A stretch of DNA of 64,000 nucleotides. Source: Pseudomonadota bacterium. GTDB taxonomy: Bacteria > Pseudomonadota > Alphaproteobacteria > CACIAM-22H2. The translations under genes were made by a program, and so were the position numbers. Positions 336 to 44,001 of this stretch are shown piece by piece. Under the pieces are notes generated by a model. The model worked only from the letters and a program-made list of their open reading frames with translations, was not told the DNA's origin and did not search any database. Where the stretch lies: NCBI GenBank assembly GCA_052387815.1, contig JBQTIU010000022.1:104913-168912 (forward strand). Reading direction: 5' to 3'. Each line of letters opens with the position of its first letter. Positions within the stretch are counted from its first letter, which is position 1.

Positions 336-457
336 CGGTCGGCGGCCGGAATACTAAGATTTCAAAGTGTTAGGTCGCGGTCGCCGCTGATCGTCGAGCC
401 CAGCCGAACCTTCGGCCGCGGCCAGCGGGTGTCGATACGAGCGAGGGGAATAGAGGG

Positions 458-793
458 ATGGGCGATCAGCCGGCGATGACGTGGCACGCGGTCGGGCGGG
501 TGGGCGAGCTCGGCGCGGGCGAGGCAAGGCAGGTGCGCGTCGGTGGGTTCGTGCTGGCGCTCTACAACGTCGATGGGACGCTTTACGCCACCGACGATAC
601 CTGCACCCATGCCCAGGCCAGCTTGTCCGAGGGCTACATCGAGGAGGGGGTCATCGAATGCCCGCTTCATCAGGGCCGTTACGACATCGCCTCGGGCAAG
701 GCGCTCAGCCCGCCGGTGACGCAGGATCTGCGCACCTATCCGGTCAAGATCGTGGGCGAGGAAATCCATGTCGCGACTCCGGCGGGGGGCTGA
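458..793 (+). CDS. Rieske [2Fe-2S] ferredoxin component of a ring-hydroxylating oxygenase system
   Basis: 111 aa; CTH...CPLH (C-X-H ... C-X-X-H) Rieske cluster ligands; size typical of a Rieske ferredoxin. Confidence 0.8.
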   Translation: MGDQPAMTWHAVGRVGELGAGEARQVRVGGFVLALYNVDGTLYATDDTCTHAQASLSEGYIEEGVIECPLHQGRYDIASGKALSPPVTQDLRTYPVKIVGEEIHVATPAGG

Positions 794-831
794 CGGCGGT
801 CTCTTTGGCGGCGTGATCGGGCGAGCGCAAC

Positions 832-1389
832 ATGAGCATGCTGATCCCGCGGCTCGAGATCGAGGACCTGGCCCCGGCGCTGCGGCAAGCGCTGGCGCCG
901 CGGGTCAAACGCCTCGGTTATCTCGGTGAGTTCTTCAAATGCGCGGGCCACCAGCCGGCGGCGCTCCTCTCGTTCATGCGGTTCACCGAAGATCTCAAGG
1001 AAGCCCTGCCGGACAACCTCACCGAAGTGGTGGCCCTGACGGTCGCCGGGAGCATGGACAACGCGTATGAGCGCCACCAGCACGAACGGCTGTGCCGGCG
1101 GCTCGGTTTTTCGCCGGAGTGGATCGGCGCCGTCAACGCGCTCGATCCGGCTGCCGGCACACCCCTCTCCGAGGACGAGCGGCTGGTGCAACGCTTGGTC
1201 GTGGCGGTCATCGAGCGCCAGGGCCGCGGCGTCGGCGAGAAATTCGACGCCGTGGTCCGCGCCGTCGGTCCCGCCCGGTCGATGGCCGTGCTCATGCTGA
1301 TCGGTCGCTACGTCACCCACGCCTTGATCGTCAACACCCTCGCGCTCGCCCCACCCGTGCCGTCCATATTTGCGGAGGCGAAGGCATGA
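832..1389 (+). CDS. carboxymuconolactone decarboxylase family / AhpD-like protein
   Basis: 185 aa helical protein of the CMD/AhpD type; stop overlaps the next start (ATGA at 1386-1389). Confidence 0.6.
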   Translation: MSMLIPRLEIEDLAPALRQALAPRVKRLGYLGEFFKCAGHQPAALLSFMRFTEDLKEALPDNLTEVVALTVAGSMDNAYERHQHERLCRRLGFSPEWIGAVNALDPAAGTPLSEDERLVQRLVVAVIERQGRGVGEKFDAVVRAVGPARSMAVLMLIGRYVTHALIVNTLALAPPVPSIFAEAKA

Positions 1390-2429
1390 GCGCGATTCCG
1401 GCCACGGCCCGCGAGCCGCTGTGGATCACCGAGGCCGAAACGGTCGCCCTCATCGATATGGGGGATGCGATCGTCGCCCTCGAGCGCGGCCTCGCCGCGG
1501 AGGGGCGCGGCGAGGCGGAGAACATGGTCAAGACGCATGCCACCTGGGGCAAAGACGACACGCTCCATGCCATCGGGGCCATCTTCCCGGCCACCGGCTT
1601 CGTCGGCACCAAGACCTGGGCGCATACCGGGGGCGGCGCCACGCCGCTCCTGCTGCTGTTCGACGCCCATGACGGCTCGCTCAAGGCGATCATCGAGGCA
1701 TTCGCGCTCGGCCAGTTGCGGACCGGAGGCATTTCGGGCGTCGCCACGCAATGGCTCGCCATGCCCGCGGCCGACGAGCTGGCGATCATCGGGACGGGAA
1801 AACAGGCGATCACGCAGGTCGCGGCGGTCGCCGCCGTGCGGCCGCTCAAGCGGGTGCGGGTTTTCAGCCCGACGCCGGCCAACCGAGCGCGGTTCGCGGA
1901 CCGCGTGACCAAGGAACTGCAAATTCCGGCGGCCGCCGCCGGCTCGGTCGCCGAGGCCGTCCGCGATGCGCCCATCATCACCTTGGTGACGCGCGCCACT
2001 TCGCCCTTCCTTAGCTCCGCCATGGTCGCGCGCGGGGCGCACATCAACGCGGTGGGGGCCATCGTGCCCGCCCGGGTCGAGTTCGCCCACGACCTGTTCG
2101 TGCGCTGCGGCCGGGTGGTGGTCGACAGCCCGCCCCAGGTCCAGAGGCTGTCGCGCGAGTTCATGGATCGCTACGGGTCGGACCCGGTCGCCTGGGAGGC
2201 CGTCGAATCGTTGTCGAAGGTCGTGGTCGGCCGCAAGTCGAGGTCGCCTGACACCGACTTGACGCTGTTCAAGGCGATGGGAATGGGCGTTTCCGACCTG
2301 TCGGTCGGCATCGAAGTCTATCGGCGCGCCGTCGAGCGCGGTCTCGGTCGCCGCATTCCGCGCCCGGAGCGCGCCATGCCCAGGTTGCGGGCCGTCGCGC
2401 CCGCGCAGAAGAGAGGAGCCGCATCATGA
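1386..2429 (+). CDS. ornithine cyclodeaminase / mu-crystallin family enzyme (cyclodeaminase or ketimine/pyrroline-2-carboxylate reductase type)
   Basis: 347 aa from the internal ATG at 1386; the upstream part of the 445-aa ORF is R/P-rich alternate-frame translation; Rossmann segment IIGTGKQA and OCD-family architecture. Confidence 0.8.
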   Translation: MSAIPATAREPLWITEAETVALIDMGDAIVALERGLAAEGRGEAENMVKTHATWGKDDTLHAIGAIFPATGFVGTKTWAHTGGGATPLLLLFDAHDGSLKAIIEAFALGQLRTGGISGVATQWLAMPAADELAIIGTGKQAITQVAAVAAVRPLKRVRVFSPTPANRARFADRVTKELQIPAAAAGSVAEAVRDAPIITLVTRATSPFLSSAMVARGAHINAVGAIVPARVEFAHDLFVRCGRVVVDSPPQVQRLSREFMDRYGSDPVAWEAVESLSKVVVGRKSRSPDTDLTLFKAMGMGVSDLSVGIEVYRRAVERGLGRRIPRPERAMPRLRAVAPAQKRGAAS

Positions 2430-3517
2430 GCGAGAAATACTTCATCGACCGGACCGGCGTGAGCGCGCCGAACCTCGACCTGTGGCCGCCGGTGGTCGTT
2501 CCCAAGGAGGCGATCGAGAGCGAAATCGCGCGGCTCGCCTCGCTGCCGGCGCCGGCGAACGGACGGCGCGAATCGCTGATCGTTCACCCCCAGGCGAGGC
2601 CGCCGGGTCTCGGGCTCGCGGCCGGCATCGAGGTCAAGCTCTGCGTGCTGAAGCCCGGCGAGAAGACGGCGCCGATCCGCCACAACTCGACCCAGGTCAG
2701 TTTCTGCATCCAGGGGGCCGGGGCCGGCGTCATCGGTGGCAAGCGGATCGAATTCGCGCAGTACGACGTGTGGAACCACCCCTCGTATACGACGTATTGG
2801 CATATCAACGACACCGGGGAGCTGCAGGTCCGGCTCGCCTACTCCAACGCCGCGCTGCTCGACAAGCTCAACATCCACGTCGTCGACGAGTCTCCGCCGA
2901 TCGTCGCGGCGGTGCCCCGCGCGGCCGAGCCGGCGGCGGCCGATCCGCGCCGCAAGAGCCCGTACGGGACCTTCGAGCTCACCGAGGACGGCGCCTGGCT
3001 GATGCCATACGAGCTGTTGATCAATCCCCAGGCCGTGGAATCGAAGCCCCTGCATTGGCCGTGGAAGCTGGTCAAGGAACATCTCGACAAGCTCGAGGCG
3101 CTGGGCAAGGACTACGTCGGCCGCCGGCTCTATCTGCTCTACAACCCGGCGACCGGGCGGACCAACGGCACGACCCCGAACTTCTTCGCCACGATGACGA
3201 TTCGCCCGCCCAAGATCGTCGACCGGCCGCATCGCCATTCCTCGGCCGCGATCAACTACTACTTCCAAGGCAGCGGCCGCAGCACGGTGGAGGGCAAAGT
3301 CTACACCTGGAAGGCCGGCGACCTGATGCTGTCGGCCCCCGGCTGGGCGGTCCATAACCACGCCTCCTACGGCGATTACGTGTACGAGCTCACCGTTCAG
3401 GATCAGCCGCTCAACATCAACATGGAATCCCTGCTGTGGCAGGAAAGCCTGAAGCATCCGGCGGCGTTGCTCGGCGCCGAGCCCGGCTTCGAGACCAACC
3501 GGGCCAGGGCGGGCTGA
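2426..3517 (+). CDS. bicupin dioxygenase, gentisate/1-hydroxy-2-naphthoate 1,2-dioxygenase-like
   Basis: 363 aa; two cupin-like halves with His-rich metal motifs (for example RPHRHSSAAINYYFQG); ATGA overlap with the upstream gene. Confidence 0.6.
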   Translation: MSEKYFIDRTGVSAPNLDLWPPVVVPKEAIESEIARLASLPAPANGRRESLIVHPQARPPGLGLAAGIEVKLCVLKPGEKTAPIRHNSTQVSFCIQGAGAGVIGGKRIEFAQYDVWNHPSYTTYWHINDTGELQVRLAYSNAALLDKLNIHVVDESPPIVAAVPRAAEPAAADPRRKSPYGTFELTEDGAWLMPYELLINPQAVESKPLHWPWKLVKEHLDKLEALGKDYVGRRLYLLYNPATGRTNGTTPNFFATMTIRPPKIVDRPHRHSSAAINYYFQGSGRSTVEGKVYTWKAGDLMLSAPGWAVHNHASYGDYVYELTVQDQPLNINMESLLWQESLKHPAALLGAEPGFETNRARAG

Positions 3518-3524
3518 GGCGCCC

Positions 3525-4442
3525 ATGATCGAGCTGGCCAAGGACAAGCTGCGCGGCTCCTACCCGCCGCTGGTGAGCCCGTTCACGAACGGCAAGGTCG
3601 ACTACGACGCCTATGCCGGACTCGTCGAGCGGCAGATCAAGGAGGGCTCGCACGGCATCGTCGTCAACGGGACGACCGGCGAGCCGACCACCCTTACGAT
3701 CGCCGAGCGCAACAAGCTGGTCGAGGTGGCGGTCGAGGCCGCATCCGGCTGCATCGCGGTCGTGGCGGCCACCGGCTCGCAGAGCCATGCCGAATCGGTG
3801 GCGCTCACGCGCGCGGCCGAGAAGGCCGGCGCCGATGCGGTGCTCGTCGTCACGCCGTACTTCATCCGCCCGCCCCAGCGCGGCCTCGTCGACTACTACC
3901 TGGACATCGGCCGGCAGACCGCCCTTCCGCTCATGATCTACCACATCCCGGGCCGCGCGGCCGTCAACCTGACCGCCGACACGATCGCCGCCATCGCGGA
4001 GCGAGTGCCGAACCTGGTCGGAATCAAGCACGCTGTCAACGATCTCAACCTGGTGACCGAGCTCTTGGCCCGGCTCGGGTTCGAGTTCCGGGTGTTCGTC
4101 GGCCTCGAGGATTTGAGCTTTCCGATGCTGGCGGTCGGCGCGGCGGGACTCATGAACGCGGTCGGCAACCTTGCGCCACGCAAGGTGGCGGCGCTCTACG
4201 AAGCGACGGCGGCCGGCAAGCTTGCGCAAGCCCGCGCCCTTCATTACGAGCTGTTCGAGCTCAATCAGGCGGTGTTCTTCGACACCAACCCCATCCCAAT
4301 GAAATACATGATGAAGCGCTTGGGCCTGCTCGCCAACGAAGAGCACCGGCTGCCGATGGTGCCGGCCACGCCCGAGCTCGCGCGACGCTTGGACGAGGTG
4401 TTGCGGCGCGCGGGTCTGCTCAAGCGCGCGGCGGCCGAGTAG
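3525..4442 (+). CDS. DHDPS/N-acetylneuraminate lyase family class I aldolase (DapA-like; could be a hydratase-aldolase or pyrroline-hydroxy-carboxylate deaminase type)
   Basis: 305 aa; GIVVNGTTGE near the N-terminus and a GIKHAVNDLN segment typical of the DHDPS family. Confidence 0.8.
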   Translation: MIELAKDKLRGSYPPLVSPFTNGKVDYDAYAGLVERQIKEGSHGIVVNGTTGEPTTLTIAERNKLVEVAVEAASGCIAVVAATGSQSHAESVALTRAAEKAGADAVLVVTPYFIRPPQRGLVDYYLDIGRQTALPLMIYHIPGRAAVNLTADTIAAIAERVPNLVGIKHAVNDLNLVTELLARLGFEFRVFVGLEDLSFPMLAVGAAGLMNAVGNLAPRKVAALYEATAAGKLAQARALHYELFELNQAVFFDTNPIPMKYMMKRLGLLANEEHRLPMVPATPELARRLDEVLRRAGLLKRAAAE

Positions 4443-4473
4443 GCATGGCCGCCCTTTCCTTTTGCGCTGGCCT

Positions 4474-5001
4474 TCAGATCGGGTAGATCAGCGAGGCCGG
4501 CACGAGGTTCGAATCGAAGACGCAGAGCCGTTCCTTGAACACCAGCCGGCCCTGGTGGCGGACCAGCTTGTCGAGATAGCGTCCGGTGTTGAAGATCCGA
4601 GTCTCCTCGTCGACCCTGGTCTCGAGGACGAGGTAACTGGCCTGGGCCTCGATGACGCCGTCGACCATGCCCCGGATGCGGACCGGCCCGACGAGATGGC
4701 GCATGAACCGCGGCGCGTAGACGGCCGTTTGCCGGATCGCGACCACGCGGTCCTTGAGCATGCCGCGGCTCTCGCAGCGCAGGGTGGCGAGCGGCAAGCC
4801 GCGATCGAAATTCTCGCGGGGAATGATCTTGTACGTGCACTCATCGGTGAACAAGTCGGGCCAGCGCTCGAGCTCGTCGTCGTCGAGGCAGGTCGCGTAG
4901 TCGCAGTAGAGATCCTCGATCTCGAGGCGCAGTTCGCGCAGCTCGCGCGGATCCATGGACTCTCGCGCATTGGTCGGGCGTTGCACGGCCGCGACCCTCA
5001 C
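4474..5001 (-). CDS. ring-hydroxylating dioxygenase beta (small) subunit
   Basis: 175 aa of RHO small-subunit size, SnoaL-like fold suggested by composition; start overlaps the alpha-subunit stop (ATGA). Confidence 0.75.
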   Translation of the reverse strand: MRVAAVQRPTNARESMDPRELRELRLEIEDLYCDYATCLDDDELERWPDLFTDECTYKIIPRENFDRGLPLATLRCESRGMLKDRVVAIRQTAVYAPRFMRHLVGPVRIRGMVDGVIEAQASYLVLETRVDEETRIFNTGRYLDKLVRHQGRLVFKERLCVFDSNLVPASLIYPI

Positions 5002-6257
5002 AGCCCCATGACTTCGCGGTAATGCTTATAGAAACCGCGGACCGAGGTCTCGGTGACCAGGTGCGGCTCGTTGCGGACCTCGCGCCCGCCCATCTCGAGC
5101 ACGCTGGCGTCATCGGGATAGGGCGCGACGCCGAGTTGCGAGAATTCCATCATTTCGCTGTCATCGACCGAGACATAGCCGGCCGGCCCCATCAGGTTGG
5201 CCTGGCGCAGGCGGCGCGTCGTCATCTCCTCGCTGTCGGCGGCGTAGCCGAAGAAGGTCCACACCAATTCGAATTCCCGTGGTCCGCGCGTCACCAGCTG
5301 GCGCGTGGCCAGCGTGTTCGACTGCTGCTGGATAATCAGGTTCGGCCACAGCGTCTGCATAACCACCGTGGCCTCGCCCGGGAACTCGCGCACCGGGTCC
5401 AGGAGCCGCGCGTCGTTGAGCTTGAAATCGGGCCGCATCGACTTCATGTCGGCGGTGGCTTCGCTCGCCTTTTGCTCGCCCTTGCGCGAGATGAGCGCCG
5501 CGTGCCGCCCGCTGTCGTCCATCTCGACCGCCGAGGGCTGATCGGCCCGGAAGAGCCCGAAGGTGACCAGGAAGACATGCAGCAGGCTCGCGTGATAGGG
5601 GTCCTTGATGTTCTCGAACATCAGCTTCCAGTTGCTGCGGATGGCCTGGCGCATGTAGCCGAGCAGCGTCAGCGGGCGCCCGTCGAACACGCGATCGAAA
5701 TATTTGAGCATCGGCGGCCCGAGGTAGTCCTCGAAGGACGGCATGTCGTGGCGGAAGCTCGCGAAGACGACGCCGTGGCGCTCCGTGACCGCGAGCTTGC
5801 GCAGGCCGTGGTCCTCGGGCTTGAAATCGGCCGGCATGCCGCCCTGCTTGTTGACCCCGCGGCGGAACGGCACGCCGATGAGGTTGCCCTTGAGGTCATA
5901 GGTCCACTGGTGGTAGGGGCACATGAACTCGCGCGTGTTGCCGAGGCTGCGACGGCAGAACTGGACGCCGCGATGGGCGCACTTGTTGACGACGACGTTG
6001 ATCCCACCCTCGGCGTCGCGCGTCACGATCACCGCCTTGTCCCCGATCGAACTGCGTTTGAAATCGCCCGGGTTCGGGATCTCCGCCGCGAGCCCGACGT
6101 AGTTCCAGCTCGGCCCGCAGAAGATCCGCTCCTGCTCGCGCGCATAGAGCTCGGGATCGGTGTAGACCCAGTGGGGCACCCGCGACACGCCCTCGCGGGG
6201 CCATGCCCGATCGGCCGTGGCGTGTGCGCTGGCCGCTGCCATGCCCCTTCCGTTCAT
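4998..6257 (-). CDS. ring-hydroxylating dioxygenase alpha (large) subunit
   Basis: CAHRG...CPYHQW Rieske motif plus a catalytic domain; start taken at Met23 of the ORF (6257), which has a GGGAGG Shine-Dalgarno 7 nt upstream. Confidence 0.85.
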   Translation of the reverse strand: MNGRGMAAASAHATADRAWPREGVSRVPHWVYTDPELYAREQERIFCGPSWNYVGLAAEIPNPGDFKRSSIGDKAVIVTRDAEGGINVVVNKCAHRGVQFCRRSLGNTREFMCPYHQWTYDLKGNLIGVPFRRGVNKQGGMPADFKPEDHGLRKLAVTERHGVVFASFRHDMPSFEDYLGPPMLKYFDRVFDGRPLTLLGYMRQAIRSNWKLMFENIKDPYHASLLHVFLVTFGLFRADQPSAVEMDDSGRHAALISRKGEQKASEATADMKSMRPDFKLNDARLLDPVREFPGEATVVMQTLWPNLIIQQQSNTLATRQLVTRGPREFELVWTFFGYAADSEEMTTRRLRQANLMGPAGYVSVDDSEMMEFSQLGVAPYPDDASVLEMGGREVRNEPHLVTETSVRGFYKHYREVMGL

Positions 6258-6394
6258 CCGCTGGCCTCCCCGCCCGAGCCGGCAGCCGAAGTGCCCGGGT
6301 GCGCCAGGGCGGGCCAAAAACATAGCTTTCGAAGCAATCGCTTAGCACGATGGCGCGCCCCCGGTCAACAAGCAGGGCGGCACGCCTTTTCACG

Positions 6395-7189
6395 TTATCT
6401 CCGCAACAGGCGTTCAACTTCGTCGCCGGCGTCGAAGACGAGGTTGAGTATTGCCGCCGTGACCGTGATGGCGAGCGTGGGCCACAAGAGCAGCACAGGG
6501 TTGTCGAAAAGGAACAGCCGGTACTCGTGTACCATGGCCCCCCAGTCGGGGCGGGAGGTGTCGGCGCCCAACCCGAGGAAGGCCAGCGCGGCGTAGCTGA
6601 GCACGTTTCGGCCGGCATCGCTTCCGAGATAGGTCGATACGGTATCGCGGATACTCGGCAGAACATGGCGCCGGAGCTTTCCCCATGTCCCCGCCCCCAG
6701 CGCCTCGGCGGCGCGCATGTAATCCTGGGCGAGGACGCGGGTCGTGAGGTGGTGGGCAAGCATTGCGTAGGATCCCCAACCGGCGACGCCAAGCGCGACC
6801 CCCGCGGTCACCGGGGTGAGCCCGACCAGCGTCGTCAGGGTTAGGGCCAGCACGAGTTGCGGCATGACGATGACGAATTCCGCCGCCCTCACCAGGGCGC
6901 CCTCGACGAGCCGGCCGGAGAGCGCCGCAATCACGCCGATGAGCGTCCCGGTCAAAGCCGAGACCACGGTGACCACGACCAATACGGTCGCGGTATGACC
7001 CGCGCCGACCATGAGCCGCGACAGCACATCGCGACCGAGATGGTCGGTCCCGAGCGGATGGATCAGCGATGGGCCGGCGTGGCGGAGCAGTAAATCGACG
7101 GCATCCGGGTCGTGCGGCTGCCAGACCGCCGCGAGCACGATTGCCAGGCAAATGACGGCGAGGACCGAAGGAGGTAGCCGCCGCCTCAT
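6395..7189 (-). CDS. ABC transporter permease, DppC/OppC-like
   Basis: Multi-TM permease of the family-5 peptide/nickel/opine type; internal start at 7189 overlaps the upstream permease stop. Confidence 0.8.
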   Translation of the reverse strand: MRRRLPPSVLAVICLAIVLAAVWQPHDPDAVDLLLRHAGPSLIHPLGTDHLGRDVLSRLMVGAGHTATVLVVVTVVSALTGTLIGVIAALSGRLVEGALVRAAEFVIVMPQLVLALTLTTLVGLTPVTAGVALGVAGWGSYAMLAHHLTTRVLAQDYMRAAEALGAGTWGKLRRHVLPSIRDTVSTYLGSDAGRNVLSYAALAFLGLGADTSRPDWGAMVHEYRLFLFDNPVLLLWPTLAITVTAAILNLVFDAGDEVERLLRR

Positions 7190-8097
7190 TGGATCCTCGG
7201 GTCCAGCCGGCGCCGCACGAGGCCCGCGACGAGCCCCACCGCGAGCATCCAGACACTGATGGCGACGATGTAGCCCTGGAGCACGAAATAGTCCCGGGCG
7301 GCGATGCTCTGGACGAGGAAGTCGCTGATGCCGGGCACGGCAAAGACGACCTCGGTGACCGCGGTGCCCCCGATGGCCCAGCCGCACTCCGGCGTCAGCG
7401 CGCCGAGCAGGCCGAACAGCGCATGCCTGGAGCCATGCCGTCGCAGCGCCTGCCGAGGGGAGAGCCCTTTGGCGAGGGCCGTGCGGAAGAAGGGACGAGT
7501 CTGCACGGCCCGCAGTTCGGAGCGGAACACCCGGACGAGCGAGCCGGTCGAGTACAGAGCGACGATGAGGGTTGGCAGGACAATCTGTTCGAGGAATCCG
7601 CCGGAGAACGGCCGGATCAAACGGAACTCAATAGCCAGGAGCCAGATCGCGAAGAGACCAGTGACGAAGATCGGCACCGACTGGGACAAGACGGTGATCG
7701 CGCGCGAGAGCCGGTCGGCGACGCCGTTCGGGCGCGCCGCCGCCTCGAACCCCAGCGCGATGGCCACCGCGGTTGCCAGCGCCAATCCGCCGAGGCCAAG
7801 CGCGAGCGAGACCGGCAATCGGGCCAGGAATTCGTGGAGGATCGGTTGCCGGGTCCGAAACGAGGTTCCCCAATCGCCGGAAATGAACCGCGCCAGCCAA
7901 AACCAATACTGTTCGACCAGCGATCGGTCGAGGCCCCATTCCTTATGGAGAGCGGCAATCGCCTCTGGGGTGACCGCCAGATGGGCATCGGTCAAAAGCA
8001 GCACCGCCGGGTCGCCGGGCATCGCCCGGATGGTGGCGAAGGCGACCAGGCTCGCCAACCACAGCAGCAGGAAACTGCGCCCGACCAGACGAACCAT
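7186..8097 (-). CDS. ABC transporter permease, DppB/OppB-like
   Basis: 303 aa; six-TM BPD-type transporter signature region. Confidence 0.85.
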   Translation of the reverse strand: MVRLVGRSFLLLWLASLVAFATIRAMPGDPAVLLLTDAHLAVTPEAIAALHKEWGLDRSLVEQYWFWLARFISGDWGTSFRTRQPILHEFLARLPVSLALGLGGLALATAVAIALGFEAAARPNGVADRLSRAITVLSQSVPIFVTGLFAIWLLAIEFRLIRPFSGGFLEQIVLPTLIVALYSTGSLVRVFRSELRAVQTRPFFRTALAKGLSPRQALRRHGSRHALFGLLGALTPECGWAIGGTAVTEVVFAVPGISDFLVQSIAARDYFVLQGYIVAISVWMLAVGLVAGLVRRRLDPRIQ

Positions 8098-8119
8098 GCG
8101 CGGCCCGCGCCTTTCGCCG

Positions 8120-9637
8120 CTATCGCCGCAAGCCCATCTCCGGCCGCACGATGAAGTAGTCGGATGGATAGGGACGATAGTCGGCCAGGCGCTCGGACAG
8201 CCCGGTGTGGACGAGCGGTGTCATCAGGAAGGCCGCCGGTGCCTCCTCGAACATGATCGCCTGGGCCTTCTTGAGCAACGCGGTGCGCGCGTTGCCATCG
8301 GTGGTCTCGCGAAGCCGGTCGAGAACGGCGTCGATGCGCGGCATGGAAAGCCGAGAGAAGTTGTGCACCGCCGTCGAGCGCATAAGGCGTTCGAGGATGA
8401 ATGCGCCGTCGCCGCCGGGGGCGGCATGGGTCGCCAAGAACGCAAGATGGTAGTTCCCCTCCAGGATGGCCGTCGTGATCGCCTCGACCGCCCGGGTCGC
8501 GATCCGAAAGCCGAGCGCGCCCAACTGCGATTTCACGACCGGCGCCAGCGTGAGAAAGTCGGGTCTTTGCGGTGAGGACAGCAGGACCAATTCGAGCCCC
8601 CGGTCGTCCTTGCGGCGGACGCCATCGCGAGCGAGCCGCCATCCCGCCTCGTCGAGAAGGCGTTCCGCCTGGGCGCGGTCGGTTGGCCGCGGCGCAGGCA
8701 GCGCGAACGGCATGATGGACGGGTAAATGCCGGTTGCCACCTCGCCGCCGCCGGCTGCCTCCACGAGCATGCCCCGGTCCAATGCCAGATCGACCGCGCG
8801 TCGCACCCGCACGTCGTCGAGCGGGGGACGGCTGGCCTGGAAGAACATCATATACTGGTACGCGACCAGCGTGGACTTGATCGTCAGGTTGGGATTGCGG
8901 CGCAGGCGCGGCAGGTTGTCCGCGGCAAGCTCGTAGGCAAGATCGGCTTCCCCGATTTCCAACGCCAGCGCCCGTGCCTGCGGATCGATGATCCGCCGCA
9001 CTGTCACGTTCGGACGGGTCGGCGCGCCGGGGAAGTGCGGGTTCGGGTGCAGAACGATACGATCTCCGGGCCGGTGCTCGACGATCCGGTAGGGGCCGGT
9101 GAAGACGATCTGGCCGCCGACCGGCTTATGGATCATCTGCGCCCACTCGGCCAGAACCGATGCCATGACCGGCACCGGCCGTTCGGGACGCAGCCGCAGC
9201 GTCAGCGCGTCGAGCATGTCGATCTCCAGGCGGCCGGTCTGCGCGGCGGCGATGGGATTACCGGTATTGGCGCGCAGCAGGGCGGCGCGGACGGTCTCGG
9301 CATCGACCGGGCTGCCGTCGCTGAATGTGCGATCCGGGCGCAAGCGCAGGCGCCACGTCGGACCCTCCGCCGTGACGCTTTCGGCGAGGTGCGGTACGAT
9401 CTCGCCGCCTTCGTCGAGCCGGAACAATCCCTCTGCGACGCCATGGGACTGCAAGGACCAGCCGGCGTTGCCTCGAATGGGATCAAGGGTGTCGGCGAGA
9501 AACGCTTGCGCGACCGTGATCATCGGCCGCGCGCCTGCCATGGCGGGCATCGCGATGACCGTCAGAGCGAGCGCGATGAATAGGCGCGACCGGAAGAACG
9601 GCTGAACAAAATCGGAGGTTCGCGTAGGCGGAGCCAT
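8120..9637 (-). CDS. ABC transporter substrate-binding protein, family 5 (peptide/nickel/opine type)
   Basis: 505 aa with an N-terminal signal peptide; size and composition of SBP_bac_5 proteins. Confidence 0.85.
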   Translation of the reverse strand: MAPPTRTSDFVQPFFRSRLFIALALTVIAMPAMAGARPMITVAQAFLADTLDPIRGNAGWSLQSHGVAEGLFRLDEGGEIVPHLAESVTAEGPTWRLRLRPDRTFSDGSPVDAETVRAALLRANTGNPIAAAQTGRLEIDMLDALTLRLRPERPVPVMASVLAEWAQMIHKPVGGQIVFTGPYRIVEHRPGDRIVLHPNPHFPGAPTRPNVTVRRIIDPQARALALEIGEADLAYELAADNLPRLRRNPNLTIKSTLVAYQYMMFFQASRPPLDDVRVRRAVDLALDRGMLVEAAGGGEVATGIYPSIMPFALPAPRPTDRAQAERLLDEAGWRLARDGVRRKDDRGLELVLLSSPQRPDFLTLAPVVKSQLGALGFRIATRAVEAITTAILEGNYHLAFLATHAAPGGDGAFILERLMRSTAVHNFSRLSMPRIDAVLDRLRETTDGNARTALLKKAQAIMFEEAPAAFLMTPLVHTGLSERLADYRPYPSDYFIVRPEMGLRR

Positions 9638-9971
9638 CGGACACCTCGACGCAGGACGTCTGACACGTCACCGCGAACGAGGCGCGGCCCCCGCTCGAGA
9701 ACAGCGGAAGCCGACCACCCATCGGTACACCCCGTCCGATGTGCTCGCGCTGACCACGCCGATGGCAGGTCTCCGGACTCGCGGGTCTCTGCCGTCCGCC
9801 GCCTTCCCAGTCACCCAGTGGCCGTATGGCGTCCGGCTCGCCGCCTACCGTAGCGGGGGCTGTCGCGGCATGAGGCGTGCGCCCGAACCGCGTTCCCTTT
9901 TCATCCCCGGCAGGGGAACCATCGAGATCATGATAGCTACGCGCCGCGCCGATGTCAAGTTTGCCGGCGCC

Positions 9972-11882
9972 TCAGACTTTCGGTTCCCCGAGTGTGCGCG
10001 GCACGAAACGATGGAGGACCGAGCCGGCGCCCGACAGGCCGACCGCGGCGGCCAGGATCGGCGCCGAGGAGCCGAAGAAGCACAATCCCCCGGCCCCGAA
10101 CAGCAGCCGCGCCGGCCACGACACCGCCCGGTCCAGATGGCCCTCGACGGCGATGGCCAACAGCACGACGCCGATGATCGCGAGAACAGTGGACCCGACG
10201 ATGCCGACAAAATCTCCCGTCAGGAGAATCGATTCATGATAGGCGAACGCAAACGGGACCACGAAAGCGACGATGGAAATGCGACAAGCGAGGACGGAAA
10301 GCGTCAGCGGATTGCTTTTCGCGATCGCCGCCACGGCATAGGCGGCGATGGCGACCGGCGGCGTCACCGCCGACAGCACCGCATAATACAGGATGAACAT
10401 GTGCGCGGCCATCAGCGACACGCCGAGCTTCACCAGCACCGGGCCGATGAGCACGGCGGCGAGAATGTAGGAGCTCGAGGTCGGCAATCCGAGACCGAAG
10501 ACGATGGTCAGCACTGCGGTGACGAGCAACGACACGAACACGCTGTTGCCCGTTATGAGCGTGATCACGTCGGCGAATTTGGCCACCAAGCCCGTCATCG
10601 TCAGCCCGCCGACGATCAAGCCGGCCGCCGCGCAGGCCCCGGCCACCGGCGCCATCCGCAACGTGGTTTCGCTCAAGGCGTCGAAGAGCGCGACGAGCCC
10701 TATCCGGGTTCGCGGCCTGATCGCCGCGACGGCGACGACGGCGACGGTGGCGACCACCGCCGTCAGGTTGACCGACAGGCCCGCCGCGATCGCCAGCACC
10801 AGCACGAGGATCGGGATCACGAACACCCAGCCCTGGGCAATGGTCGCGCGCGCGCTCGGAATTTCGGATGGGTCCAAGCCCTTGAGGCCGAGCCGGAGCG
10901 CGCTCAAGTGCACCTGCGCATAAATGCCGAGGTAGTAGAGGAAGGCGGGGATGGTCGCCGCGATCATGATCTCCACATAGGGGATGCCGGTGTACTCGGC
11001 CATGATGAACGCCGCCGCCCCCATGACCGGCGGCGCGAGCGAGCCGCCGGCGGAGGCCGCGACCTCGATCGCGCCGGCGAGTGTGGGCGGATATCCCAGG
11101 CGTATCATGACCGGGATGGTGACCGATCCGGTGGTGAGCGCGTCCGAGACCGGATTGCCGGAGATCGTTCCGTAAAGGCCAGAGGAGATGACCGCGATCT
11201 TGGCCGGGCCGCCCACCGATTTCCCGGTGAGTCGCGCCGCCAGGTTGAAAAAGAACTCTCCCCCGCCGGCTTTGACCAGCATCGTCCCGAACAGCACGAA
11301 CAAGAAAGCATAGGTGGCGGCAACGCGCAGCGGCGCGCCGAAGATGCCGTCGGTCGTGAAGACGATGATGTCGAGGAAGTGGTCGTAGGGGATGAAGCCG
11401 TGACCGAGCGGGCCCGAAAGACGATGGCCGAACAGGTCGTAGGCGAAAAAGAACAGGACGAGCAGGGTGAGCCCCAGCCCCGTCGTTCGCCGCGACACTT
11501 CGAGGACCAACAAGAGCAGAGCGGTTCCGAACAGGATATCGAAGGCTGTCAGCTCGTCGAACAGCGTCATCCGGGTGATGATCGTCCTGCTGTTGGCGAC
11601 GAAGTAGAGACCGGTGACGGCGGCGGCCAGCGCCAATCCCCAGTCGAGCGGCGGGATGCGCACCGGATCGGCGTCCGCTGTCGCGCCGATGATGAGGAAC
11701 ACGAGCACCAGCATCGCCGCCAAGAAAACGATGGTGAGCTGGAAGAGATCGACGATCGCGTAGACCGTCCCGTAGATGACGCCGACGGCGATGAGAGCCG
11801 CCAGCACCTTGGCTCCCCCCCCGACCCAGCCGCCTGGAGCTCGGATGCTGCCGGTGCCGAACAGCAGATCAACCGCCGTCAT
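9972..11882 (-). CDS. TRAP transporter fused permease (DctQ-DctM fusion, TAXI-associated type)
   Basis: 636 aa, highly hydrophobic polytopic protein typical of the 4TM/12TM fusion. Confidence 0.85.
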   Translation of the reverse strand: MTAVDLLFGTGSIRAPGGWVGGGAKVLAALIAVGVIYGTVYAIVDLFQLTIVFLAAMLVLVFLIIGATADADPVRIPPLDWGLALAAAVTGLYFVANSRTIITRMTLFDELTAFDILFGTALLLLVLEVSRRTTGLGLTLLVLFFFAYDLFGHRLSGPLGHGFIPYDHFLDIIVFTTDGIFGAPLRVAATYAFLFVLFGTMLVKAGGGEFFFNLAARLTGKSVGGPAKIAVISSGLYGTISGNPVSDALTTGSVTIPVMIRLGYPPTLAGAIEVAASAGGSLAPPVMGAAAFIMAEYTGIPYVEIMIAATIPAFLYYLGIYAQVHLSALRLGLKGLDPSEIPSARATIAQGWVFVIPILVLVLAIAAGLSVNLTAVVATVAVVAVAAIRPRTRIGLVALFDALSETTLRMAPVAGACAAAGLIVGGLTMTGLVAKFADVITLITGNSVFVSLLVTAVLTIVFGLGLPTSSSYILAAVLIGPVLVKLGVSLMAAHMFILYYAVLSAVTPPVAIAAYAVAAIAKSNPLTLSVLACRISIVAFVVPFAFAYHESILLTGDFVGIVGSTVLAIIGVVLLAIAVEGHLDRAVSWPARLLFGAGGLCFFGSSAPILAAAVGLSGAGSVLHRFVPRTLGEPKV

Positions 11883-12082
11883 CGGCCGGCCCCCCTAGGG
11901 CCTGCTTTCGCAACAAAGCGAGTCGTGATGACGCCTTTCGGATCGGCAACCGTAGGGGCGAGTTTCGAACCCGCCTCCACAGGACCAACTGTTTGCTCCC
12001 CGGTCTCCCGTTTTCGCGGCTGGCGCTCGAAAACGCGATCCCGGGTCCTGGGTCGGCGCCGGCCTGCGCCCCTTTCCCGTGT

Positions 12083-13066
12083 CTAACTCTGGAGCCTCTT
12101 CTCCTTGAAGTACTTCACGGCGCCGGGGTGGTAGGGGATCACGCCTTGGCTCACCATCAGCTCCGGGGTGAGCGCCTTCATCGACGGGTGAACGCCTTGC
12201 ATCTTGTCGATGTTCTCGACGAGCGCCTTCGCCAGATTGTAGGCGGTCTTCTCGTCCATGCTCTCGTGCACGACCAAGCTGGCGCCGAGCGAGACGGTGG
12301 GGATGTCCTGGGTCTGGAAATCGTAGGATTTCGCCTTGATCACGTAAGGATCGATGCCGACCTCCGCCGCCACTTTCTTGATCACGGACTCGGAGATCGG
12401 CAGCATCACCACGTCGAGCGCGTGGGCGACCTCGAGGATCGATTTCTGCGGCACGAAGATGCTGTTGTTGATCATGTCGATGCGGCGGTCCTTCATCAGG
12501 TCGCTCTGCTCCTCGGAGGCCGCATAGACGACCAGGCCGCCCCTTTGCTCGATCTCAGCGAGGGGAAACCCGATGGCCGCGAACAGCCGCTCGGAAATGT
12601 GCTCGGCGATGTTGCCGCGCTTGTTGACGGCGACCCGAAGCGGCGGTTTCTTCGCCGCAATGTCGTCGAAGGTCTTGATTCCATATTTGTCGGCGAAGCT
12701 TTTCGTCACCACGATCTGCTGCGGCGACCAGTTGTAGAGGTTGGCGATCACTCGCAGCTCCTTGACCGGCGCCCTGAACGGCGCCGTGCCTTCGGTCGCG
12801 ACCTTGAGCTCGGCGCCGTGCACGATGCCGAGCGGGGCGCGGTTCTGCTGAACGAGCAAAACATTCGCGAACCCGCCGCCCGAGGTCTGGTAGGTGATGG
12901 TCGAGCCGGGAAAGGCGGCTTTCACCGCCCCGTCGACCCCGAGCCCGATCAGCGACCACAGCCCGCCCGGGCTCGCCCCGGCCAGCGTCAAATTGTAGGG
13001 CTGCGCGCCGGCCGGGCTCGCCGACAGCGCCACGATCGCGGAACCAATGAGCGCCAGACGCCGCAT
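12083..13066 (-). CDS. TAXI family TRAP transporter solute-binding subunit
   Basis: 327 aa with signal peptide; sits immediately upstream of the fused TRAP permease on the same strand. Confidence 0.85.
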   Translation of the reverse strand: MRRLALIGSAIVALSASPAGAQPYNLTLAGASPGGLWSLIGLGVDGAVKAAFPGSTITYQTSGGGFANVLLVQQNRAPLGIVHGAELKVATEGTAPFRAPVKELRVIANLYNWSPQQIVVTKSFADKYGIKTFDDIAAKKPPLRVAVNKRGNIAEHISERLFAAIGFPLAEIEQRGGLVVYAASEEQSDLMKDRRIDMINNSIFVPQKSILEVAHALDVVMLPISESVIKKVAAEVGIDPYVIKAKSYDFQTQDIPTVSLGASLVVHESMDEKTAYNLAKALVENIDKMQGVHPSMKALTPELMVSQGVIPYHPGAVKYFKEKRLQS

Positions 13067-13261
13067 GATCGCCTCCTGATGGTCGAGACCCGGACGAAGG
13101 AACGCGCCGGTCCGTTTGGCCTTGTCTCTTCGGCGTTCGGACCGGCCGCCGCCGAAGCCCGCAATGCAATCCCTTAGAATGCTAACCGTCGTAGACGCTA
13201 TCAGCGAGGGGCGGTATGGTCAAGCCCGGCCCGGAGGCCGGATTTTTGGGACGCGGACGCC

Positions 13262-14488
13262 ATGGCGGGCCAAGTGTACCTTATCGTCGGTGCGGGGCAC
13301 GCCGGCGGACGGGCGGCGGAGACCATCCGCCAGGCGGGTTTCGCCGGCACCCTGGTGCTGGTCGGCGAGGAGCGCTATCGCCCTTACGAACGGCCGCCGC
13401 TGTCGAAGGAGCTCCTGCTCGCTCCGGCCGCGGCCCATCTGCCGTTCCTGCGCGAGGGCGGATACTACGCGGCCGAGCGCATCGATTTTCGGCCGGGCAT
13501 CCGCGTCATGGCCCTCGACCGGGCCGCGCGGCAGGTCCTCTTGTCCACCGGCGACAGGCTCGCCTATGACCGGCTGCTGCTCGCCACCGGCGGCCGGGCG
13601 CGCACGCTTGCGGTCCCGGGGGCGGACCTCTCCGGGGTGCTCACGTTGCGCGACCTCGACGATTGCCAGGCCATCGCGGCCGGGCTGCGGCAAGGGGCTT
13701 CCGTCGTCGTTATCGGCGCCGGGTTCATCGGCCTCGAGGTGGCGGCGGCGGCGCGCACGCGCGGGGCCCGCGTCAGCGTGCTCGAGGCCACCGAGCGGCT
13801 GATGGGGCGCGCCGTGCCGCCGGACATCGGCGACATCTTCGCGCGCCTCCACCGCGCCCGCGGGGTCGAGCTTCGCCTCGGCATCGGGGTGATCGGGTTC
13901 GAGGGTCGGGCAAAAGTCGAACGGGTCGTGCTCGGCGACGGCACCGCCTTGGCGGCCGACCTGGTCGTGGTCGGGATCGGGATCAAGCCCAACGACGAGC
14001 TGGCCGCGGATTCCGGCCTCGCCGTCGCCGACGGCATCCTGGTCGACGAATTCGGCGCCACCTCGGACCCGCGCATCGCTGCCGCCGGCGACGCGACCCG
14101 GCACTACAATCCGTCGCTCGGCCGCCATTTGCGCCTCGAATCCTGGCACAACGCCCAGAACCAGGCGATTGCGGTGGCGCGGACCATGTGCGGGGCGCCG
14201 ACCCCTTACGCGCAGGTGCCCTGGTTCTGGACCGACCAGTACGACGTCAACCTGCAGATGGTGGGCGCGCCCGAGAGCATCGACGGGCTGGTCTTCCGCG
14301 GCGACCCGGCGGGCCCGAGATTCACCGCCTTCGCCCTTGCCGGTGGCGCGGTGGTCGCCGCCTACACCCTCAATGCCGCCCGCGACATGCGCTTGGCGCG
14401 AAAATTGGTCGAGGCCAACATGCGGGTGGACCCGGGTTCTCTCGGCGACGAGAAACTGCCGCTCAAGGACGTTGTGGCGCGCGGCTGA
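13262..14488 (+). CDS. FAD-dependent ferredoxin reductase (pyridine nucleotide-disulfide oxidoreductase) for Rieske oxygenase systems
   Basis: 408 aa; N-terminal GAGHAG and central GAGFIGLE dinucleotide-binding motifs. Confidence 0.85.
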   Translation: MAGQVYLIVGAGHAGGRAAETIRQAGFAGTLVLVGEERYRPYERPPLSKELLLAPAAAHLPFLREGGYYAAERIDFRPGIRVMALDRAARQVLLSTGDRLAYDRLLLATGGRARTLAVPGADLSGVLTLRDLDDCQAIAAGLRQGASVVVIGAGFIGLEVAAAARTRGARVSVLEATERLMGRAVPPDIGDIFARLHRARGVELRLGIGVIGFEGRAKVERVVLGDGTALAADLVVVGIGIKPNDELAADSGLAVADGILVDEFGATSDPRIAAAGDATRHYNPSLGRHLRLESWHNAQNQAIAVARTMCGAPTPYAQVPWFWTDQYDVNLQMVGAPESIDGLVFRGDPAGPRFTAFALAGGAVVAAYTLNAARDMRLARKLVEANMRVDPGSLGDEKLPLKDVVARG

Positions 14489-14994
14489 TACGCATCGGCA
14501 AGAATAATATTGGTTTTCATGCGCTCAAGGATAACGCGCAGCCGCCGCATCTCATCGGGCGCGATGCCCTGGCCCAAGACCTGGTTTACATCGAAGGCGC
14601 AGGGCATCAGCCTCGCTTTCAGCTTGCGGCTCTTCGGCGTCAGGTAAACATTGATCTTGCGGCGATCGACCGGGTTGCGCAGTCGCTTGACCAAGCCGCG
14701 CCTTTCCATGCCGGCCAGCGCGGTTACCGTCGTCGGCTCCATCATGCGGACCCGCCGGCTCAGCTCGCGCTGGGTGAGGCCGTCCTCCTCCCACAGCACC
14801 CACAGGAAGTACCACTGCCCGAGACTCACGCCCGCCGGCGCGATCCTTTGTTGCAGCGAGCGCGACGCCGCGCGGAAGACCTCGCGGATGAGATAGCCAA
14901 TGCTGTCCTGCGGCTTGTAGTCGAAGGCGGCGCGGGAGAGGGCGGTCGAATTGGCGCGGGCGGATCGGGGCGGCGATTTCGAGGACGGCATGGT
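14362..14994 (-). CDS. MarR family transcriptional regulator with an unusual ~40-aa C-terminal tail
   Basis: Winged-HTH MarR core; start at the internal Met (14994); the ORF continues 126 nt into the convergent reductase gene. Confidence 0.7.
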   Translation of the reverse strand, partial: TMPSSKSPPRSARANSTALSRAAFDYKPQDSIGYLIREVFRAASRSLQQRIAPAGVSLGQWYFLWVLWEEDGLTQRELSRRVRMMEPTTVTALAGMERRGLVKRLRNPVDRRKINVYLTPKSRKLKARLMPCAFDVNQVLGQGIAPDEMRRLRVILERMKTNIILADAYQPRATTSLSGSFSSPREPGSTRMLASTNFRAKRMSRAALRV

Positions 14995-15971: not shown

Positions 15972-16158
15972 TGTGGCAGGCCGGGGCGCGCCCCACAAGG
16001 CGCGCTTACACGCGGCCTTCCCAAGCGCCCGGCCGACCGACTATAATCAAGATGGAAATTACCGTCGCTTCGTGCCCCCTTGCGCTTGGGGCGGGGCGGC
16101 GCTTTTTTCGGCTTGGTGTTTTCCGCGCCTCGGTTGAGGCCAAGGGAATGATGGCGGC

Positions 16159-17241: not shown

Positions 17242-17247
17242 AGTCTC

Positions 17248-41796: not shown

Positions 41797-41840
41797 TAGG
41801 CTGCCGGCCCAACCCGAGCGACCCCGCGAGCGAGGACCGG

Positions 41841-43974: not shown

Positions 43975-44001
43975 AACCCGGCCGCGGTCGCCGGGTCCGT
44001 C

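Follow-up and report, generated by a model that had tools for sequence, protein, structure and literature searches.

The first 15 kb of the stretch of DNA analyzed here (contig JBQTIU010000022.1 of a Pseudomonadota bacterium; 64,000 nt, hereafter the window) carry a gene cluster in which a three-component Rieske oxygenase is combined with a block of four genes, hereafter the four-gene module, encoding an AhpD/CMD-fold protein, an enzyme of the OCD/mu-crystallin family, a bicupin, and a DapA-like protein of the DHDPS family. We consider it probable (at roughly 0.6) that positions 332-14991, minus an inserted ABC transporter unit at 6395-9958, form a MarR-controlled regulon for the catabolism of an aromatic carboxylic acid, with an ortho-substituted benzoate of the salicylate or anthranilate type as the most likely substrate. 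The components all belong to known superfamilies and the logic would be classical (hydroxylate, cleave, process to pyruvate), but the lower pathway matches nothing that we found in the literature: Searches for this gene combination returned no matching published pathway, in keeping with a preliminary description of this DNA that had seen in it a route without an obvious textbook match. Genes in the window (G+C 65-72%) were selected by their third-position G+C (GC3 0.83-0.91), and families were assigned by Pfam and NCBIfam scans of the window proteins, with the NCBIfam equivalog scores as cut-offs. These scans recovered every gene family of the preliminary description, including its three-component Rieske set. 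An independent assembly holds an identical 16 kb contig (L081) with the same arrangement and the same gene calls, and a protein in NCBI, from a metagenome-assembled genome (MAG) labeled "Pseudomonadota bacterium," matches the window bicupin at 100% identity. Within the module, the stop of the CMD gene and the start of the OCD gene overlap by 4 nt, as do the OCD stop and the bicupin start; a long open reading frame from 1092 is an artifact, the true OCD gene starting at 1386 in overlap with the CMD stop. The alpha-subunit start at 6257 is backed by an upstream GGAGG and by the independent gene call in L081.

The linkage of these genes recurs in many other genomes. We surveyed relatives of the oxygenase alpha subunit with one genome per species, which yielded 448 relatives, and counted genes within 10 kb of the best 80 of them (63-75% identity). 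The beta subunit was present in 77 of the 80 loci, the bicupin (62-71% identity) in 51, the OCD gene in 36, the DapA-like gene in 29, the ferredoxin in 27, and the reductase in 4. When the count was made on the 45 alpha loci that were fully flanked (at least 8 kb on each side), the bicupin lay within 10 kb in 38. The genes for the TAXI protein and the TRAP permease were found together in 6 of the 80 loci (TAXI orthologues at 52-61% identity, the permease at 55-56%), a MarR gene adjoined alpha in 19 loci, and family-5 ABC genes were essentially never seen. The carriers comprised Stellaceae, Binatia, Burkholderiales, Myxococcota, Casimicrobiaceae, and Rhodospirillales-like MAGs as well as the cultured Algihabitans albus (L041).

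Searching from the side of the bicupin gave a complementary picture. Among 8,000 candidates scored, 2,528 were metagenomic homologues at E <= 1e-10, named only "cupin domain-containing protein" or, automatically, "gentisate 1,2-dioxygenase"; the CMD-like family counted 1,922 homologues. In the bicupin-encoding contigs, the order CMD-like, OCD, bicupin, DapA-like recurred almost without exception, and a Rieske oxygenase adjoined the module in roughly half of them. Since the module also occurs without the oxygenase in long contigs, the invariant unit appears to be the four-gene module, with the oxygenase as its commonest partner. The synteny across Stellaceae, Binatia, Burkholderiales, Myxococcota, and Rhodospirillales-like genomes, together with a common promoter design (see below), bears out the earlier proposal that the oxygenase, OCD, DapA-like, bicupin, and CMD genes are one functional set. 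The composition that had been called unusual is so relative to the literature, but in nature it is common. In one Burkholderiales MAG (L012, 15248-18167), the bicupin is followed by another Rieske alpha/beta pair, unlike the first, together with a D-2-hydroxyacid dehydrogenase.

The alpha subunit was 57% identical to NagG, the salicylate 5-hydroxylase of known structure (7c8z; E 1e-151), and matched the terephthalate dioxygenase TphA2 at E 4e-103. Aligned to 7c8z and 7q04, it carries the Rieske motif CAHRG...CPYHQW, and its iron ligands are kept: H210, H215, and D356 of the terephthalate enzyme have their counterparts in DPYHASLLH and in the Asp of VSVDDSE. Within NTLATRQLV, the Arg corresponds to the carboxylate-anchoring Arg of these enzymes, R309 in TphA2 and R323 in NagG, whose salt bridge holds the substrate carboxylate (PMC9060491). 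At the positions that serve the second carboxylate in the terephthalate enzyme (S243, R390, N224), the window alpha has Leu, Leu, and Phe, where NagG has Met, Met, and Trp (pocket L, L, F, M versus M, M, W, M), and the pocket therefore resembles that of a monocarboxylate enzyme. In a neighbor-joining tree with NagG and TphA2 as the only references (that is, without AndAc, AhdA1c, OhbA, or the hydroxypicolinate monooxygenase), 75 cluster-linked alphas, all at least 64% identical to the window alpha, formed a clade with NagG outside at 51-58% identity. Because NagG falls outside this clade, we regard the cluster-linked alphas as an orthologous group that is distinct from, and stands beside, salicylate 5-hydroxylase.

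And models were the best or nearly the best NCBIfam match for all four components, namely AndAc for alpha (467.8 bits; cut-off 750), AndAd for beta (158.8; cut-off 230), AndAb for the ferredoxin (103.7; cut-off 150, with HcaC and AndAb as best matches at about 104-106 bits), and AndAa for the reductase (392.6; cut-off 650, with HcaD at 387 bits, also below its cut-off). The partner set is complete, as beta adjoins alpha and the ferredoxin and reductase lie in the same regulon. In its three-component make-up, the system is like AndAaAbAcAd (Burkholderia cepacia DBO1 type), from which it differs in that all four scores stay far below the cut-offs; moreover, the And system makes catechol, whereas the cluster has no catechol dioxygenase. 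The resemblance to NagGH and the gentisate pathway of the nag operon (Ralstonia sp. U2, 7C8Z) lies in the aryl-carboxylate alpha/beta oxygenase with its Arg anchor and hydrophobic pocket and in the pairing of this oxygenase with a dioxygenase of the gentisate-dioxygenase fold. Unlike NagGH, the window oxygenase is partnered by a glutathione-reductase-type reductase and a Rieske ferredoxin (AndA/Hca type), and its alpha belongs to a separate clade. Farther along the window, two monomeric LigXa-like Rieske oxygenases (37764-39176 on the forward strand and 40274-41626 on the reverse strand) lie around a D-2-hydroxyacid dehydrogenase, followed at 41775-45997 by an Iso_dh-family dehydrogenase and a TTT transporter; since neither oxygenase has a ferredoxin or reductase of its own nearby, both may share the reductase at 13262-14488.

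The bicupin is most likely a ring-cleaving Fe(II) dioxygenase that acts on a substrate other than gentisate, as suggested by its residues and its modeled fold. In alignments, its C-terminal cupin (residues about 200-330) pairs with the catalytic cupin found at the N terminus in gentisate, salicylate, and 5-nitrosalicylate dioxygenases, while at the sequence level its N-terminal cupin aligns with their C-terminal domain. Over 36 homologues, His269, His271, and His310, whose counterparts in salicylate dioxygenase are His119, His121, and His160, were invariant, and so were His312 and Arg233/234, the equivalents of His162 and Arg83 of that enzyme; an invariant Phe stands where salicylate dioxygenase has Trp104. 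A model built from the alignment (pLDDT 75.6) gave 2phd, 3bu7, and 2d40 as the best Foldseek matches (E about 1e-19, TM 0.64-0.70) and was clearly farther from quercetinases and other bicupins. The cupin fold and the three-His Fe(II) site are shared with the dioxygenases 3BU7, 2D40, 2PHD, and 8CH4, from which the window protein differs by an identity of only 13-20% and a domain order that is swapped at the sequence level. The score against the MabB model was 68.6 bits, for a cut-off of 650.

For the DapA-like protein, the motifs suggest a pyruvate-releasing aldolase. It matched genuine DapA structures at E 1e-67 and scored 262.9 bits with TIGR00674 (dapA), over the cut-off of 206.15, yet its top model was TIGR02313, which is marked "NOT-DapA" and covers DapA-like 2,4-dihydroxyhept-2-ene-1,7-dioate aldolases from homoprotocatechuate pathways (303.5 bits, below the cut-off of 396.7). 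Its motifs NGTTGE, IYHIPGR, and GIKHA are conserved and provide equivalents of Thr44/45, Tyr133, Arg138, and the Schiff-base Lys161, while the whole family has Phe where the catalytic triad would have Tyr107 (TPYF, not PYY); the numbers follow the E. coli enzyme, and in DapA this Arg binds the carboxylate of aspartate semialdehyde. The gene lies in a catabolic operon, a setting that differs both from the lysine biosynthesis of DapA and from the homoprotocatechuate operons of the TIGR02313 aldolases. The OCD-family protein found its best PDB match in 6t3e, a delta1-pyrroline-2-carboxylate reductase (E 2e-28); the Pfam domain is full-length, and the Rossmann GxGxxA motif, here GTGKQA, is conserved. 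It reached none of the 13 NCBIfam subfamily models (best 157 bits against a cut-off of 417), which covered OCD, AlaDH, Pyr2C/Pip2C reductase, BhcD, EutC, and SbnB. The model of the AhpD/CMD-fold protein (pLDDT 94.5) matched 3lvy, 6e8l, 2prr, and 6ohj at a TM of about 0.8, with the debrominase Bmp8 also among the Foldseek matches. The CxxC redox motif of AhpD-type peroxidases was not found in it; Cys37 and His40 (KCSGH) are nearly invariant, and the protein may act as an isomerase or tautomerase or in thiol chemistry. Apart from the formal dapA score, no component of the cluster reaches a characterized subfamily by these model scores.

From the gene families, their linkage, the motifs, and the metal-binding and catalytic residues, we infer the following route. 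The anion would be taken up by the TAXI-TRAP transporter, and electrons from NAD(P)H would flow from the reductase through the Rieske ferredoxin to an alpha3beta3 oxygenase. The substrate, held by one carboxylate (via the conserved Arg) in a NagG-like hydrophobic pocket, would be hydroxylated on the ring para to its ortho substituent, by analogy with NagG, yielding a gentisate-like p-diol or a p-aminophenol carboxylate. The Fe(II) three-histidine bicupin would then open the ring beside the carboxyl-bearing carbon to give a 2-oxo-dicarboxylic C7 acid, after which the AhpD-fold protein may, through its Cys/His pair, isomerize or tautomerize the ring-fission product, and the OCD-family enzyme may reduce a C=N bond with NAD(P)H, or a C=O bond instead if the substrate is nitrogen-free. 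Finally, the DapA-like enzyme would form a lysine Schiff base and cleave C3-C4 to pyruvate and a C4 aldehyde-acid (aspartate, maleate, or succinate semialdehyde), which in the Binatia loci the adjacent aldehyde dehydrogenase could oxidize.

Whether the substrate carries nitrogen divides this reading into two variants. An amino-substituted substrate, to which we give less than even odds, would fit the usual C=N chemistry of OCD enzymes as well as the Arg of the DapA-like protein; a 3-amino-substituted salicylate, for example, would give an alpha-imino acid after cleavage. The recurrent homologues of hydroxy-aromatic acid decarboxylases in other loci point at least as much to nitrogen-free hydroxybenzoates, and we hold a nitrogen-free substrate to be only slightly less likely than an amino-substituted one. 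Its plainest form would be a pathway from salicylate (or 3-hydroxybenzoate) via gentisate, in which the oxygenase would act as a salicylate 5-hydroxylase, the bicupin as a divergent gentisate dioxygenase, the AhpD-like protein as a thiol-type maleylpyruvate isomerase, and the OCD-like protein as a keto, ene, or quinone reductase, with the DapA-like enzyme in place of the fumarylpyruvate or maleylpyruvate hydrolase. NagG is indeed the closest characterized relative of alpha and has a similar pocket, the nearest folds of the bicupin are gentisate and salicylate dioxygenases, the Cys/His pair of the AhpD-like protein is conserved, and the other loci are adjoined by homologues of decarboxylases for hydroxy-aromatic acids (dihydroxyphthalate, UbiD-type, and Amidohydro_2). 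Yet alpha lies outside the NagG lineage at 51-58% identity, the bicupin lacks equivalents of Arg127 and Gln108, no locus has an FAH-type hydrolase or a GST/DinB-type isomerase, and we know of no OCD-family enzyme that reduces a C=O or C=C bond, which makes this form of the pathway unlikely in our estimate. Compared to the nag pathway, the catalytic-type domain of the bicupin is moved to the C terminus, and AhpD-like, OCD-like, and DapA-like genes replace those for the maleylpyruvate isomerase and fumarylpyruvate hydrolase.

Several observations weigh against an aromatic-acid regulon of the kind proposed here. At the active site of the bicupin, an invariant Asn277 stands for Arg127 of salicylate dioxygenase and a nearly invariant Thr258 for Gln108, and the protein scored 57.6 bits with TIGR02272, far below the cut-off of 442.1. 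Three long contigs carry the module with no Rieske oxygenase within 9 kb, and in L085 the module stands beside a TauD/GBBH-like hydroxylase and a pyridoxal phosphate (PLP)-dependent decarboxylase, a setting that would suit amino-acid metabolism. To our knowledge, every characterized OCD-family enzyme acts on C-N bonds, whereas the recurrent decarboxylases beside the module suggest nitrogen-free substrates, so the role of the OCD-like protein would be unprecedented in the nitrogen-free variant and would have no nitrogen source in the amino variant. We likewise know of no documented case of a DapA-family enzyme acting on such a ring-fission product.

The genes that accompany the module elsewhere suggest how varied its inputs might be. 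A homologue of 4,5-dihydroxyphthalate decarboxylase (9JP7, E 1.5e-73) adjoined the module in 24 loci, and a class II aldolase-like neighbor had 3,4-dihydroxyphthalate decarboxylase as its best model (82 bits, below cut-off). In two soil-metagenome contigs (L096, 53-4347, and L100, 33-7111), a DASS carrier, two family III CoA-transferases, and a UbiD decarboxylase precede the module, an arrangement that resembles the phthaloyl-CoA decarboxylase system of anaerobic phthalate degraders. Three consecutive cupin-containing proteins (about 430-460 amino acids) and a UbiX-like flavoprotein lie beside the module in L102 (1032-5715), and a 662-amino-acid protein of the Amidohydro_2 decarboxylase family with an RraA-like aldolase does so in L091 (134-2836). 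Other recurrent neighbors were a benzoylformate-decarboxylase-like thiamine diphosphate (TPP) enzyme, an aldehyde dehydrogenase (which follows the module in the Binatia loci), a luciferase-like monooxygenase, and TTT receptors. The PhtD-like, class II aldolase-like, TPP enzyme, aldehyde dehydrogenase, and luciferase-like genes were not found in the 64-kb window, where the neighbor-gene search matched only the MarR gene, the CMD-like gene, and an unrelated TTT receptor. An oxalate-handling role, also considered, was dropped on finding that the neighboring TPP enzymes are PRK08327/benzoylformate-decarboxylase-like and not oxalyl-CoA decarboxylases. Decarboxylase homologues and dicarboxylate carriers beside the module in many other genomes recall the phthalate pathways, but these end in protocatechuate or benzoyl-CoA without a bicupin/OCD/DapA-like block, and their decarboxylases are absent from the window.

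Taken across genomes, the four-gene block shows the pattern of a central lower pathway into which a variety of peripheral reactions feed, all on hydroxylated aromatic (poly)carboxylates. It might even constitute an unrecognized "central" ring-fission pathway with a standing like that of gentisate or homogentisate, widespread in soil and marine bacteria and supplied by varied peripheral feeders, an idea that we put forward with less than even confidence. Its feeders would be the NagG-sister Rieske hydroxylase in the window and four kinds of aromatic-acid decarboxylase elsewhere. If so, it would involve new chemistry for the OCD family (imine or ketone reduction of a ring-fission product) and for a DapA homologue (Schiff-base C-C cleavage to pyruvate and a C4 semialdehyde), and a common mineralization route for aromatic acids in uncultured soil and marine bacteria would be missing from pathway databases. 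The module genes are at present annotated as "cupin domain protein," "gentisate 1,2-dioxygenase," "alkylhydroperoxidase family enzyme," or "dihydrodipicolinate synthase," and once the pathway is worked out, thousands of annotations could be corrected, ring-fission products would gain a new lower pathway, and more reactions would be known for the OCD and DapA families.

The preliminary description had suggested an N-heterocyclic or amino-aromatic substrate, a suggestion weakened by the NagG-like pocket with its single carboxylate anchor and by the decarboxylase homologues near the module in other genomes. In the catabolism of pyridine carboxylates or dicarboxylates (dipicolinate, quinolinate, hydroxypicolinates), the ring nitrogen would supply an imine for the OCD-like enzyme, and the DapA-like enzyme would reverse the chemistry of tetrahydrodipicolinate formation to give pyruvate and aspartate semialdehyde. 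This would suit a DapA-like protein that passes the dapA cut-off and keeps the Arg for aspartate semialdehyde, an OCD protein whose relatives reduce delta1-piperideine- and delta1-pyrroline-2-carboxylates, and the TAXI-TRAP, TTT, and DASS carriers, which are appropriate for dicarboxylates. In addition, the oxygenase subfamily includes the hydroxypicolinate monooxygenase (PMC9060491), and dipicolinate is abundant in soil (PMC11472048). We nevertheless judge a pyridine substrate improbable: The oxygenase pocket has no second carboxylate-binding residue, gentisate-type cleavage of 3-hydroxypicolinate would presumably produce an N-oxalyl amide rather than a 2-oxo acid usable by DapA, and no promoter has a GTATAC operator. 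Such operators, located in the promoters, and a GntR/FadR repressor, DipR, characterize the dip cluster of Alcaligenes faecalis JQ135 (PMC11472048). An identity with the dipicolinate (dip) cluster was rejected, as 1-16 kb of the window holds no GntR (DipR) gene and its sole GTATAC lies inside the bicupin gene, at chance level. The oxygenase of the known dip cluster, DipD, is reported to have no relationship to Rieske alpha subunits (Mu et al. 2022). A riboflavin or lumichrome pathway was set aside as well, its gene content being different (P450, xanthine oxidase, extradiol dioxygenase).

Hydroxyproline catabolism pairs an OCD-family delta1-pyrroline-2-carboxylate reductase with a DapA-family delta1-pyrroline-4-hydroxy-2-carboxylate deaminase, and this established co-occurrence invites a reading in which the substrates are cyclic but not aromatic, namely imino or amino acids like hydroxyproline, pipecolate, or diaminopimelate, the bicupin does not cleave a ring, and the Rieske, TauD-like, and P450 enzymes are aliphatic hydroxylases. 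The TauD/GBBH-like hydroxylase and PLP decarboxylase of L085, an M24 creatinase-like peptidase beside the module in L082, and the solved TAXI proteins, most of them glutamate binders, would all be in line with it, and the Binatia loci add an aldehyde dehydrogenase to the OCD and DapA pair, where hydroxyproline clusters have a 2-oxoglutarate semialdehyde dehydrogenase. It is hard, however, to reconcile such substrates with an alpha subunit 57% identical to an aromatic-acid hydroxylase with the same pocket, with a bicupin that has the full three-His site and is structurally closest to ring-cleaving dioxygenases, or with recurrent neighbors that are homologues of aromatic-acid decarboxylases. Genes for an epimerase, a D-amino-acid dehydrogenase, or a proline racemase-like protein are absent. 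Unlike in hydroxyproline clusters, there is also no D-hydroxyproline dehydrogenase or dehydratase, no NCBIfam equivalog for LhpI or related models was reached, and the OCD and DapA genes of the module are always split by the bicupin and usually linked to an aromatic-acid oxygenase. We therefore consider a non-aromatic substrate very unlikely.

The promoter-like pattern TTGACS-N16/17-CTAAG occurs exactly twice in the 64 kb (0.01 expected), before the ferredoxin operon and before alpha, and since it precedes only these two, the two catabolic operons have matching promoters. The sequence TACTAAGA, at the ferredoxin promoter site and unique in the window, is common to the oxygenase promoters of Binatia loci. 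A second element emerged from the comparison of orthologous intergenic regions, where a generic inverted-repeat finder had given no operator: The palindrome TTAG-N4-CTAA is found once in the window (13174-13185, TTAGAATGCTAA; 0.04 expected), between the TAXI and reductase genes, and as 17 matches in 1.58 Mb of related loci, almost always 5' of alpha, of the TAXI gene, or of a Binatia short-chain dehydrogenase (SDR) operon. It lies 5' of alpha or TAXI in L004, L009, L011, L037, L038, and L039, and at about 19.2-20.8 kb in eight Binatia loci (L042, L043, L053, L057, L058, L060, L063, L066), 5' of an SDR/MetE-like (Meth_synt_2) operon, which suggests that this operon belongs to the same regulon there. 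Judged from this distribution, the palindrome at 13174-13185 is a putative operator of the MarR protein, which is 46-52% identical (by tblastn) to the products of MarR genes divergent from alpha in Binatia, Stellaceae, and Rhodospirillales-like loci. Solved MarR structures gave no ligand hint, as no close relative was found among them; if the pathway is worked out, the MarR/operator pair could be used as a substrate sensor.

The MarR and reductase genes converge with a 127-nt overlap (14362-14488), of which at least 55 nt codes for both proteins, because the MarR homology runs at least to 14434. This MarR gene, absent from the preliminary description, extends the cluster to about 14991, beyond the 14 kb first delimited. 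The earlier assignment of the distal reductase to the unit stands, given that the reductase gene adjoins an orthologous MarR gene and a conserved palindrome, and that L082, one of the contigs without a Rieske oxygenase within 9 kb, has a reductase (43% identity), a MarR, and DapA-like genes beside its module. The same data speak to the view that chance alone has placed two unconnected units next to each other, or that the genes form a biosynthetic cluster, as might be argued from the contigs in which the module lacks the oxygenase and from a DAHP synthase near the module in L084 and L085. With the oxygenase linked to the module in 38 of 45 loci from several phyla, a common promoter design found nowhere else in the 64 kb, uptake transporters and a MarR repressor-type regulator in the cluster, and no recurrent carrier-protein, ligase, or tailoring genes, we find this view barely credible. 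Directly upstream of the MarR start, at a spacing of 8 nt, ends a histone-deacetylase/acetylpolyamine-amidohydrolase-like gene (15000-15998, reverse strand), and because of this spacing the two genes are probably co-transcribed. In L019, L024, and L067, a distant homologue of it (36-40% identity) is located no more than 10 kb from alpha, and its product could be a deacylase that feeds the pathway.

The family-5 ABC genes at 6395-9637 on the reverse strand do not share this control. The unit consists of a binding protein and two permeases without ATPase genes, and a cobalamin riboswitch lies between its promoter-like site (9958-9930) and the start of the binding-protein gene at 9637. This riboswitch, the sole Rfam match in the window, covers model positions 1-189 of RF00174 and scored 115.6 bits, compared to a gathering score of 31.5. 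The gene 3' of the unit is that for the oxygenase alpha subunit, which has its own promoter. Owing to its own promoter, its riboswitch, its lack of ATPase genes, and its absence from all related loci, we regard the ABC unit as a separate one, and the earlier argument that two importers within the cluster make the 14 kb a single unit consequently fails for the family-5 ABC system; TAXI-TRAP recurs with the module in six loci. Neither the riboswitch at 9747-9938 nor the lack of ATPase genes figured in the preliminary description. B12 elements occur upstream of Nik-like cobalt transporters, and the unit is probably a B12-controlled importer of the cobalt/nickel type, that is, part of cobalamin-controlled metal or corrinoid uptake inserted between the TAXI-TRAP and alpha/beta genes. 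The solved TAXI and family-5 binding proteins were too distant for ligand hints, with no close TAXI structure bearing an informative ligand. An ABC importer in the middle of the cluster illustrates that proximity alone can mislead.

Features of the proposed regulon and of the inserted ABC unit, with positions in the window
Feature	Position	Strand	Evidence
Promoter-like site TTGACG-N16-CTAAG (-10 read as TAAGAT), 5' of the ferredoxin operon	332-358	+	Sigma-70 scan
Rieske-type [2Fe-2S] ferredoxin	458-793	+	Pfam Rieske, 75.8 bits
AhpD/CMD-fold protein, 185 amino acids, module gene 1	832-1389	+	Pfam CMD, 27 bits (weak); AhpD-like fold
OCD/mu-crystallin family NAD(P)-dependent enzyme, module gene 2	1386-2429	+	Pfam OCD_Mu_crystall (PF02423), 156.7 bits
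Bicupin, gentisate/salicylate 1,2-dioxygenase type, module gene 3	2426-3517	+	Alignment, Foldseek
DapA-like (DHDPS family) Schiff-base enzyme, module gene 4	3525-4442	+	Pfam DHDPS, 256 bits
Terminator-like element (GC-rich hairpin, then a T-tract) where the DapA-like and beta genes converge	4430-4453	+	
Oxygenase beta subunit	4474-5001 (GTG start) or 4474-4986 (L081 call)	-	Pfam Ring_hydroxyl_B, SnoaL_4
Oxygenase alpha subunit, aryl-carboxylate subgroup	4998-6257	-	PDB 7c8z match
Promoter-like site TTGACC-N17-CTAAG directly 5' of alpha, followed by CTAAGCGATTGCTTCG	6341-6368	-	
Two ABC permeases	6395-8097	-	
Family-5 ABC binding protein, NikA/Opp5A-like	8120-9637	-	
Cobalamin riboswitch RF00174	9747-9938	-	115.6 bits
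Near-consensus sigma-70 promoter-like site of the ABC unit	9958-9930	-	
Fused TRAP membrane component (DctQM type), TAXI partner	9972-11882	-	Pfam DctM, 253.9 bits
TAXI-family TRAP solute-binding protein, likely substrate receptor	12083-13066	-	TIGR02122, 176.5 bits, over cut-off
Palindrome TTAGAATGCTAA, putative MarR operator, in the divergent TAXI/reductase promoter region	13174-13185	+	
FAD/NAD(P)H ferredoxin reductase, glutathione-reductase type	13262-14488	+	Pfam Pyr_redox_2, Reductase_C
MarR-family regulator	14362-14991	-	tblastn to the MarR family of the loci

On either side of the cluster, we observed genes of other kinds. Directly 5' of it lies a MazE/MazF (PrlF/PemK) toxin-antitoxin pair (27-335 on the forward strand of the window, which begins inside the toxin gene; 707-1319 in L081). 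On the far side, an RND efflux pair of a membrane fusion protein and an AcrB-like pump (16159-20358, forward strand) is divergent from the operon of the deacetylase-like and MarR genes, and beyond it a gene for an ArsR-family regulator follows at 20462-20827 on the forward strand.

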